A DNA stretch of 64,000 nt, taken from NCBI GenBank assembly GCA_049654165.1, contig JBASHR010000037.1, positions 16,780 through 80,779 of the forward strand. The letters are read 5' to 3'. The position numbers and the translations under genes are program-made. This DNA comes from Bacteroidales bacterium (lineage in GTDB: Bacteria > Bacteroidota > Bacteroidia > Bacteroidales > JAAYJT01). Numbering within the stretch: the stretch's first letter is position 1; each line of letters starts with the position of its first letter. Below are positions 24,535-25,554 of this stretch, one piece after another. The notes under the pieces were generated by a model. The model had not been told where the DNA came from, made no database searches, and saw only the letters and a program-made list of their open reading frames with translations.

Positions 24535-25554
24535 CAGGCACTTCGGAAACCTCAACGCCCGGGGTTAAAAATCCCTCAAAGTGCAAAATCTCATAGATTA
24601 TTTAATCCCGTAGGGTCGCAGACCCTTACGGGATGATATGTTTATAGAAAATAGAACAAATTCCAATCTCAAAGCCCCGTAGGGGCGAAATAATCTTTTT
24701 CAACACCCGCCGGGAATTGATTGTCAAATTATTATGAATAAGAACGGGCTAAAGCCGGTGGCAGCTCATAATCATATCATTATGAATAAAACTCTCCGGA
24801 CTTTCTCCCAACCATTAAAGAATCTGTAAGGTCCTAATATTCCGGCGCTTCGAGAGCCTCAGAGCCCGGGGCTAAAAATCCTATATCAATCCCGTAGGGT
24901 TGAAGACCATTAAGGGATGAAATTATTATACTTTCGGTAGTTCTATTTGTCATTAGTAAACCCCGAAGGGGTGATATGTTTGTAGAAAATAAAACAAATC
25001 TCATCCCTAAACCCTGAAGGGGTTTAATAATAAATGAATAATGAATAGGAACGGGCTAAAGCCCGTTTGTTAAATATGATTTCCCCTAATCCACCGGCTT
25101 TAGCTGAAAATAATTGTTATTATCTCCAAAATACATTTTTGAACCATTTTGGCTAAAGCCAATATATTGAATATCCTCTTTTCACCACCGGCTAAAGCCG
25201 GTGGCAATTCATAATCATACCAATATGAATGTGATCCCTGGACTTTCACCCCACCATCAAAGAATCTGTAAAGATATAATATTCCGGCGCTTCGGGAACC
25301 TCAGCGCCCGAGGCTAAAAATCCCGTAGGGTTGCAGATCCTTAAGGGACTAATTTATTATAATTTCGGTAGTGCTATTTGTCATTAGTAAACCCCGAAGG
25401 GGTGATATGTTTGTAGGAAATAAAACAAATTCCAATCCTAAGCCCCGTAGGGGCGAAATAATCTTTTTCAACAACCGCTGGGAATTGATTGTCAAATTAT
25501 TATCAACAGGAACCGGCTAAAGCCGGTGGAAGCTCATAATCATATCATTATGAA
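24535..25554. repeat. mosaic array 1 of GC-rich hairpin modules (BIME/REP-like), with internal direct repeats of about 150 and 220 bp
   Basis: There is no ORF of 60 aa or more in the 1146-bp gap between two convergent gene ends.

Example stems:
- ccaccggc-taaa-gccggtgg (25185-25204)
- ggcgct-N11-agcgcc (25286-25308)
- atcccgtagggtc/gacccttacgggat (24605-24634)
- gcccc-gta-ggggc (24674-24686)
- acgggc-taaa-gcccgt (25051-25066)

Hand alignment gives two direct repeats. 24635-24786 matches 25404-25554 with about 13 differences. 24768-24999 matches 25210-25430 with one 13-bp indel. Confidence 0.85.

Follow-up and report, generated by a model that had tools for sequence, protein, structure and literature searches.

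The partnership between repetitive extragenic palindromic (REP) sequences, or the REP doublets forming hairpins (REPINs), and REP-associated tyrosine transposases (RAYTs) is the textbook example of a transposase tamed by its host, and it has been worked out almost only in the Proteobacteria. In Escherichia coli, a low-copy gene of the Y1/HUH type, encoding TnpA_REP, is bracketed by inverted repeats, and the repeats far outnumber the gene. The repeats are short, GC-rich, imperfect palindromes that lie outside genes, mostly at gene ends, and form mosaics with conserved linkers, the bacterial interspersed mosaic elements or BIMEs (PMC2817692, PMC8266576). Here, we describe a hairpin mosaic of this general kind in a 64,000 nt stretch of DNA, hereafter the window, from a Bacteroidales bacterium (GenBank assembly GCA_049654165.1, contig JBASHR010000037.1, positions 16,780 to 80,779). 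The array, mosaic A, lies between a dsrE-family gene and rfbC, and is probably a REP/BIME-like intergenic build-up of several non-coding hairpin repeat families, maintained by Y1 enzymes encoded elsewhere together with local duplication. The repeat families are dispersed in this genome and in its relatives, and one of them, X, matches the sequences that flank a Y1 gene in six other genomes.

The REPINs of Pseudomonas fluorescens are non-coding and consist of two inverted arms around a short spacer, which give one long fold (PMC3116915). They are related to the flanks of a Y1 gene of single-copy type, and occur singly, as solo halves and in tandem arrays. Insertion sequences (ISs) of the IS200/IS605 type, such as IS608 and ISDra2, have subterminal hairpins with a conserved 'foot' and produce no target duplication, and their ends are not inverted repeats of one another because both hairpins are on one strand. 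The hairpins of IS608, ISDra2 and the E. coli TnpA_REP system are read as single-stranded DNA. A further group of Y1 proteins, 'RAYT-like IS200 Group 3', has neither duplicates nor plasmid copies and is accompanied by abundant flanking 16-mers (21 occurrences; Bertels et al., PMC5581495).

The X repeat and its Y1 gene

X is about 190–230 nt long and has two inverted arms, each a hairpin doublet of the form GGCTAAAGCC ... CCACCGGCTAAAGCCGGTGG-CAATTCAT, in which an inner hairpin (GGCTAAAGCC) is accompanied by an outer hairpin with an 8 bp stem, a TAAA loop and a CAATTCAT/TGAAT foot. The arms are separated by 38–39 nt (25109–25146 and 39218–39256). A reading of the window made from its sequence alone, without database searches (the sequence-only reading), had raised a RAYT-like Y1 transposase as a possible partner of the hairpins, and a Y1 gene abutted by an X arm was indeed found in six other Bacteroidota genomes. 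In an uncultured Bacteroidetes metagenome-assembled genome (L004), the doublet TTTGGCTAAAGCCAA, about 27 nt, CCNCCGGCTAAAGCCGGNGG, CAATTCA is inverted around a 148 aa open reading frame (ORF; 6933–7379) that encodes a Y1_Tnp protein (PF01797, 1.2e-28). The enzyme is IS200-like: it passes the NCBIfam IS200 model (NF033573; 66 bits, cut-off 55) and fails the REP_Tyr_transpos (RAYT) model (28.7 bits, cut-off 80). Among solved structures, the TnpA proteins of IS608 and ISDra2 come closest to it (2a6m/2vjv, 6e-8; 2xm3, 1e-5), with the HuH and Y motifs aligned, and TnpA_REP was unmatched in the PDB search at E up to 1.

An arm starts about 10 nt or less past the Y1 stop codon in all six contexts (L004, L018, L019, L022, L127 and L003). 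In four of these relatives of the window's genome (L004, L019, L022 and L003), an inverted arm also lies 5' of the gene, just upstream of the ATG, so that cognate inverted repeats stand on both sides as they do around TnpA_REP; in L018 and L127 both arms are 3' of the gene. L127 is a cultured Flavobacterium (Flavobacterium sp. LS1R47) with the Y1 gene between a cobT-like gene and cobS. In L003, the arms surround a Y1 gene that has lost residues 16–87, and this locus appears to be an intermediate towards the gene-less X. A profile built from 10 gene-flanking arms of the six other genomes, without window sequence, matched both arms of both X copies in the window (Table 1) and, in part, solo hairpins at 24743, 25512, 33726 and 12457. 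Window positions 25038–25215 and 39148–39327 thus correspond to the two ends of the Y1 element minus the gene, and X in the window is a gene-less derivative of that element, resembling a REPIN or a MITE, a transposable element of the miniature inverted-repeat kind.

The motifs of the L004 protein (DHCH, WQ and YIKNQEEHH) are those of lineage a, with members of 145–148 aa. The enzyme family is very large, with thousands of members at 75–92 % identity across Bacteroidota orders. It includes 7531 clusters at E 1e-10 or better, and the best 120 of the 7531 are 74–92 % identical, named sources among these 120 being Prolixibacteraceae, Ferruginibacter, Flavobacterium, Sphingobacteriales and Algoriphagus. 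IMG/VR holds no lineage-a copy (one distant match at 31 % identity in the single-protein search, none in the alignment search), and PLSDB gave only two matches, both 36 % identical and on 600-kb replicons. The family is highly conserved, shows no plasmid or viral copies of the lineage and apparently lacks the many identical copies typical of an active IS, which suggests that it behaves like a domesticated gene. In several contigs (L019, 7375–13396; L022, 1314–7152; also L020, L021 and L023–L025) a lineage-a Y1 gene with arms separates hsdR from hsdM in an operon for type I restriction-modification. Two different Y1 proteins, 79 % and 83 % identical to the query, are found in this context, and the presence of Y1 genes in operon spacers may reflect chance insertion or a real association.

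L019 holds two Y1 genes that are mutually 36 % identical. The second belongs to lineage b (153 aa, 36 % identical to lineage a; YITNQEEHH, WQ, DHVH), which sits in other hairpin repeats (GAGCCTACGGCTC, GGATGGAATAAATTCCATCC and NNCCGTAGGNN, plus ...TTGTAG...). Upstream of the 153 aa Y1 gene in L019 (13400–13980) are tandem units of about 62 nt (AAATCCCGTAGGGATGGTTCATATTGTARC + AACGGATTTYAATCCGTTGG) that form another Y1-linked hairpin family.

X shares the REPIN properties given above and, as far as sequence goes, fits the REPIN definition. Unlike the REPINs of P. fluorescens, it is about twice as long, has two hairpins per arm and a partner on the IS200 branch, and its mobility is putative. With IS200/IS605 it shares the closest solved enzymes, subterminal hairpins with a conserved foot and the lack of a target duplication; unlike the ends of those ISs, the X arms are inverted and fit one profile on opposite strands. 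The differences from the classical RAYT/REP system are larger. The enzyme is IS200-like (class 1) with the Y motif Y---Q--HH, whereas that of RAYTs is Y---NP. The GTAG/CGTC tag of REPs is absent, the feet being CAATTCAT/TGAAT and TGAATAGGAA, and GTA is confined to the CCCGTAGGG mini-hairpins, whose loop it forms. An arm here pairs two hairpins of different kinds. The modules are mostly in direct orientation and not alternating as in BIMEs, and several unrelated families are interleaved. Hence, as enzyme clade, GTAG tag and alternating orientation all fail, this is not a classical RAYT/REP member, and the likeness to BIME/REP mosaics drawn in the sequence-only reading is supported, except that it does not extend to module orientation or to a classical RAYT.

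A further match is found in the Y1 proteins named subclass 1.2 or IS200 Group 3, which share the DH-H, WQ and Y---Q--HH motifs, a size of about 148 aa, occurrence in Bacteroidetes, low copy number and absence from plasmids. We infer from the protein motifs that the two names denote one group, with lineages a and b as members. Quentin et al. (PMC6006769) state of subclass 1.2 that it 'does not share IS properties', and the behaviour of the lineage-a gene agrees with both published accounts. The repeats are undescribed in the accounts of these groups (PMC6006769, PMC5581495); here the flanking repeat is defined as a hairpin-doublet arm, and gene-less copies and kilobase mosaics are added. A Y1 gene with the subclass 1.2 signature (DHVH, WQ, YIQRQEAHH) that runs off the contig end was also seen in a contig of 65 % G+C (L052, 9714–10070), implying that subclass 1.2 extends beyond Bacteroidota and Cyanobacteria. 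Cyanobacteria also carry subclass 1.2 Y1 genes. The small dispersed repeats (SDRs) of Nostoc and other cyanobacteria, which Elhai et al. are said to have reported in 2008, are reportedly very small hairpin modules that form nested and clustered intergenic mosaics. We know of no enzyme for the SDRs, and the likeness of the window mosaics to them, drawn from their description, is a lead only.

The stem of the outer hairpin varies in a compensated manner. In a set of 30 outer hairpins from 15 loci plus the window, 92.9 % of cells are paired against 70.1 % when shuffled, two-sided changes occur at all eight pairs, and none of 500 shuffles reached the covariation score; shifting the 3' partner columns lowered pairing to 44 % or less. 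Compensated variants include CCACCGGC/GCCGGTGG, CCTCCAGC/GCTGGAGG, CCTCCAGA/TCTGGAGG and AACGGGC/GCCCGTT. The TAAA loop and the CAATTCAT foot are near-invariant. A constant loop and foot with a stem that is free to change provided it is compensated are expected of a hairpin that is read by a protein, and the outer hairpin appears to be under selection. The check proposed in the sequence-only reading, compensatory variation across copies, was thus positive for the best-sampled stem. The outer stem of a second module, R1, also covaries (ACAC/GTGT, ACCC/GGGT) around a constant 15-nt core.

Folded as single-stranded DNA, the outer hairpin of X reached −10.3 kcal/mol (z −5.95 against shuffles), and the whole of the X copy in a second mosaic, mosaic B, gave one long structure (z −5.28). 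All of the hairpins listed in the sequence-only reading are present and most fold better than shuffles (z −3.68 for CGGGCTAAAGCCCG, −2.3 to −2.6 for the mini-hairpins); ggcgct-N11-agcgcc (z −1.06), GGCTAAAGCC (z −1.56) and the tcataat palindrome (z −1.97) are energetically weak. Many of the mini-hairpins have a GNA triloop closed by a C-G pair (C-GAA-G, C-GTA-G), and the C-GNA-G mini-hairpin, according to work attributed to Hirao and Yoshizawa, is reportedly unusually stable in DNA.

Composition, dispersal and strain variation of the mosaics

The gap that holds mosaic A is 1145 nt long and lies between convergent gene ends. Upstream is the DsrE-family gene (24057–24419, + strand; PF02635, 4.9e-23), whose stop borders the gap, and downstream is rfbC for dTDP-4-dehydrorhamnose 3,5-epimerase (25565–26107, − strand; PF00908, 2.5e-73), whose stop faces it. 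As first read, the gap has no ORF of 60 aa or more, the longest being 56 aa. The higher-order direct repeats were likewise recovered, with slightly different edges, by repeat finding and blastn self-comparison: 24622–24786 and 25391–25554 share 90 % identity over 165 nt, and 24744–25031 and 25187–25462 share 82 % over 288 nt. From these pairwise matches, mosaic A is made up of three diverged copies, the first partial, of a composite unit of about 430–440 nt with indels, and the copies are 82–94 % identical. Tandem segmental duplication accounts for this layout better than independent insertions do. In the window, GGCTAAAGCC occurs 11 times (0.08 expected), CCCGTAGGG six times (0.14 expected) and CCCCGAAGGGG, with up to one mismatch, seven times (0.29 expected), counts that no shuffle reached.

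An assembly artefact in one set of data does not account for the array. The ENA assembly L002, which is independent, matches it at 100 % identity over its full length, and a Logan assembly (L001) is identical until window position 25444, where the contig ends inside a repeat. That short-read contig terminates in the mosaic and most contigs with the Y1 gene are shorter than 2 kb; such repeats evidently fragment metagenome assemblies of this Bacteroidales clade. No catalogued IS, MITE or RNA family matched, which agrees with the initial failure to assign the array to a described element. The module sequences were absent from the searchable literature in a literal search of 8 million papers, the sole match being an unrelated primer, and a scan of the GTDB species-representative genomes gave no locus with all four of the window pattern matches. 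Its conserved 'spacers' and heterogeneous units led us to reject CRISPR-like and minisatellite readings of the array.

Besides X, five modules were named. R1 is GGCGCTTCGRGARCCTCAGCGCC and R2 is ATCCCGTAGGGTCGCAGACCCTTACGGGAT; h-Lk-h is a mini-hairpin (CCCCGAAGGGG or CCCCGTAGGGG), then GATATGTTTGTAGAAAAT and about 20 nt, then a second mini-hairpin; T is an ATTCAT...ATGAAT palindrome; and P, GATCCCGAATGACTCGGGAG, was found in relatives only. Every copy of R1, R2 and h-Lk-h in the two window mosaics is on the + strand, which is also the sense strand for the upstream gene, and only the X arms are inverted. This strand bias could have its source in transcription or in replication. The h-Lk-h linker contains TATGTTTG at 24975–24982 and 25406–25413, which fits what we take to be the Bacteroidota −7 promoter consensus, TAnnTTTG; it is without a −33 TTTG at a spacing of 19–21 nt and may be a chance match.

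Table 1. Repeat features of the window, with the evidence for each
Feature	Position	Strand	Basis
Mosaic A, three composite-unit copies (one partial)	24529-25555		Repeat finding, blastn self-comparison
R1 copy 0, degenerate (GGCACTTCGGAAACCTCAACGCC)	24537-24559	+	Repeat family D1; nhmmer E 9.8e-14 with a profile made from the five window copies, including copy 0 itself
R1 copy 1 (GGCGCTTCGAGAGCCTCAGAGCC)	24844-24866	+	Repeat family; 21-nt core recurs in other metagenome contigs
R1 copy 2 (GGCGCTTCGGGAACCTCAGCGCC)	25286-25308	+	Repeat family, profile, fold
R2, long palindrome, two inverted CCCGTAGGG half-sites	24605-24634	+	Single-stranded DNA fold −11.9 kcal/mol, z −5.64
R2 copy 2, decayed stem	24889-24918	+	Repeat family D4, sequence reading
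R2 copy 3, decayed stem	25320-25349	+	Repeat family D4, sequence reading
h-Lk-h copy 1 (mini-hairpin, GATATGTTTRTAGAAAAT linker, mini-hairpin)	24620-24695	+	Other-contig profile E 7.6e-14
h-Lk-h copy 2 (CCCCGAAGGGG ... CCCTGAAGGGG)	24958-25031	+	Other-contig profile E 1.4e-14
h-Lk-h copy 3	25389-25463	+	Other-contig profile E 2.7e-16
X left arm (outer hairpin ACGGGCTAAAGCCCGT, TGAATAGGAA foot, inner remnant CCACCGGCTTTAGC)	25040-25108	-	Y1-arm profile E 1.3e-4
X right arm (TTTGGCTAAAGCCAA, 22-nt spacer, CCACCGGCTAAAGCCGGTGG, CAATTCAT foot)	25147-25214	+	Y1-arm profile E 2.3e-16
Solo outer hairpin, both feet (left/right arm hybrid)	24743-24770	+	Partial profile match E 1.5e-3
Solo outer hairpin, both feet	25512-25536	+	Partial profile match E 6.6e-3
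T palindrome (right foot ATTCAT, spacer, left foot ATGAAT)	24766-24787, 25209-25230, 25534-25555		Family D5
Non-hairpin composite-unit spacer	24793-24838, 25235-25280	+	Family D6, 85 % identity
Mosaic B	38822-39358		blastn; single-stranded DNA fold z −5.25
Mosaic B X left arm (TGAATAGGAACGGGCTTTAGCCCGT ... GGGCTTTAGCCCAAA)	39149-39217	-	Y1-arm profile E 1.5e-7
Mosaic B X right arm	39257-39325	+	Y1-arm profile E 7.6e-16
Mosaic B h-Lk-h	39010-39076	+	Other-contig profile E 5.6e-10
Inverted inner-type hairpin pair (AATTGGCTAAAGCCGG, 26 nt, CCGGGCTTTAGCCAATT)	12455-12516		Weak profile matches E 0.01-0.03
Isolated decayed outer hairpin (ACGGGCTAAAGTCCGT)	33726-33765	+	Families D3, I1; profile E 6.9e-3

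The initial placement of the array in this gap alone did not hold. The modules are at four sites in the window, all of them intergenic with none in coding sequence. X arms and solo hairpins together number at least eight in the 64 kb, and hairpins about 25, all palindromic and strictly intergenic. Mosaic B lies 13.5 kb from mosaic A, between co-directional ABC-3 permease and TPR genes, and has the same module order as mosaic A (R1, R2, mini-hairpin, R1, h-Lk-h, mini-hairpin, X, T). The hairpin pair at 12455–12516 lies between convergent gene ends and the hairpin at 33726–33765 in a divergent intergenic region. The pair directly follows the stop of a gene (9168–12422) for a 1084 aa protein with leucine-rich repeats and a C-terminal sorting domain for type IX secretion (PF18962), a domain that supports the Bacteroidota origin of the window.

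As the sequence-only reading had suggested checking, the modules were sought elsewhere, and they recur at non-orthologous places in other Bacteroidales contigs (L015, L037, L042, L068, L096 and L110), which came from scans of species-representative genomes and JGI metagenomes, for example upstream of glyS in L110 and downstream of an ssb-like gene in L096. L042 has more than 1.6 kb of modules, in which four X elements stand in tandem and repeat every 234 nt, and also a minisatellite-like run of six P hairpins (GATCCCGAATGAYTMGGGAG) at 7350–7530, followed by GAGAATT/GATAATT repeats. An h-Lk-h profile made from other contigs only found four window copies (E 5.6e-10 to 2.7e-16), all on the + strand.

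R1 is distributed far more widely. Its exact 21-mer, GCGCTTCGAGAGCCTCAGCGC, which forms the core of the window sites at 24844–24866, 25286–25308 and 38975–38997, was found in 89 metagenome stretches (L026–L114) with G+C contents of 0.34–0.75. Nineteen of these belong to one high-GC element family (..GAACGG, about 40 nt, CCGTTCGCCCTGAGGAGCCGCC), seven are inverted doublets, 11 are low-GC contigs (at least seven with Bacteroidales-type mosaics) and 49 form a mixed set that includes copies within genes. For the R1 repeat-like elements there was no Rfam family, no adjoining Y1 gene and no literature match.

The orthologous spacer varies between close relatives. In the nearest ones (L076 and L119–L125; RfbC 96–97 % identical) the CDF-rfbC synteny is kept and dsrE is absent, which marks the gain or loss of a gene where the array meets its flank. 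Their spacers are 411, 437, 621 or 652 nt against 1145 nt in the window, and only 90 nt of mosaic A (24604–24693) can still be aligned to them, with the R2 copy at 24605–24634 sharing 90 % identity with its orthologue in L076. L119 and L122 are 99.6–99.7 % identical over 7.3 kb and differ by a single 210-nt block that consists of a P hairpin and a complete X. At its junction there is no microhomology and no duplication, and the block cannot be slid by even one base. L121 has 26 nt more, one additional P hairpin, giving two P copies in L121 and L122 and one in L119. In L124, an R1-R2-Lk unit adds 159 nt, and 81 nt from the interior of X are retained that the others lack. Such module-sized gains and losses would fit mobile elements and inter-repeat recombination, without proving transposition.

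Competing explanations

With the repeats, their dispersal and intergenic position, the identity of X with Y1-flanking arms, the stem covariation and the module-scale indels all observed, we favour a build-up maintained in trans. A Y1 enzyme whose gene lies elsewhere in the genome would recognise the outer hairpin and its foot as single-stranded DNA and would cut and rejoin beside the foot, so that the element is maintained or spread. New copies would land beside older ones, and the repeat-rich spacer would then grow or shrink by tandem duplication, deletion and recombination between modules, with the three-fold composite array of mosaic A as the outcome. By analogy, R1, R2, h-Lk-h and P may be elements of the same kind with other partners, and a host-level role such as termination or insulation is conceivable.

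A number of points weigh against this explanation. Searching the 64 kb window by tblastn with both Y1 lineages gave no Y1 gene, so the cognate enzyme in this organism is assumed, and to our knowledge no protein of subclass 1.2 has been shown to be active. About one-third of mosaic A (X, the solo hairpins and T) is tied to the Y1 family, and R1, R2, h-Lk-h and P are without an identified partner. Among the 89 R1 stretches, only L052 has a Y1 gene, about 3 kb away from the motif, and the repeats that flank lineage b (L019, L115, L116 and L118), tried as counterparts of the CCCGTAGGG/Lk modules of the window, gave nothing by blastn at E up to 0.05 and are alike in style only. The R2 copies in the window show mostly decay and not compensation; when window and orthologous copies were compared by eye, mismatches predominated, with one compensated pair in 38881–38910. 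The direction of the change between L119 and L122 is ambiguous because the neighbouring arm differs too, no pair of empty and filled sites with a defined target sequence was found, and recombination or slippage alone can account for the three-fold layout and for every strain polymorphism. Finally, Quentin et al. (PMC6006769) list subclass 1.2 TnpA-Y1 as 'REP: no'.

The covariation of the outer hairpin fits action in RNA equally well, a further difficulty for a DNA-based account, and the hairpins might act mainly as terminators, insulators of convergent genes, mRNA stabilisers or small RNAs, with repetition secondary. Such roles would suit the position of both mosaic A and the 12455–12516 pair between convergent gene ends, the common sense-strand orientation of R1, R2 and h-Lk-h, and the number of terminator-like sites (5 against 1.6 ± 1.3 in shuffles). 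We nevertheless consider a mainly RNA-level explanation unlikely, as copy number and composition vary between loci and even between strains with 99.6 % identical flanks, the X arms are by construction in both orientations and flank a transposase gene, one copy (33726–33765) is in a divergent promoter region, and a T-run is missing from most hairpins. Rfam gave no family at gathering score in the whole window, none at E up to 1 on 24000–26000 and none in 14 related loci, the searches yielding chance-level matches and one tRNA only. Sigma-70-type promoters were not enriched (5 found, 6.0 expected).

Mosaic A could also be a purely local product in which one ancestral spacer was tandemly amplified and nothing is or was mobile. 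Its three copies of one composite unit are what such a history would leave, and the strain differences do resemble gain and loss of repeat units. However, mosaic B, the two further window sites and the modules in L110, L096, L015, L037 and L042 contradict an origin in one spacer, as do the arms that flank Y1 genes in six other genomes, making this explanation very improbable. We give least credence of all to X being an ordinary DDE-type MITE with terminal inverted repeats and target-site duplications, the outcome that the sequence-only reading had named as a check. X is small, has an AT-rich interior and has imperfect inverted termini of about 28 nt (ATGAATAGGAACGGGCTTTAGCCCGT and ATGAATTGCCACCGGCTTTAGCCGGTGG), but each of these termini is a hairpin in its own right with a stem that covaries, the version with the gene encodes a Y1/HUH and not a DDE enzyme, no DDE gene lies beside the arms at any locus examined, and no direct duplication accompanies the 210-nt indel.

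A probable DNA partner for an IS200-like group

Most likely, then, the mosaic functions like a REP/BIME array while falling outside the classical RAYT/REP family, and what lies beyond the one-third formed by X is explained by analogy only. A broader possibility, which we put forward tentatively, is that mosaics of this type are the repeat partners of the 'subclass 1.2 / IS200 Group 3' Y1 proteins. These would form a second partnership of the REP-RAYT type, on the IS200 branch and widespread in Bacteroidota, with a separate hairpin family for each Y1 lineage. Lineage a would have X as its REPIN, lineage b-like enzymes would have the CCGTAGG-type modules, and R1, with a 15-nt core that is constant from 34 % to 75 % G+C, would be read by a cross-phylum factor.

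For this odd IS200-like group of the Bacteroidetes and Cyanobacteria, the X arm supplies a concrete DNA partner, a hairpin doublet whose stem covaries and whose loop and foot are constant. The same arm exists without the gene and then contributes to kilobase mosaics, which differ even among near-identical strains. A biochemical test with purified enzyme and a 33-nt oligonucleotide such as CACCACCGGCTAAAGCCGGTGGCAATTCATAAT is now possible. The repeats would explain why short-read assemblies break at such Bacteroidales spacers, and the mosaics are ready-made strain markers. The spread of the R1 motif across phyla raises the question of what this motif is.

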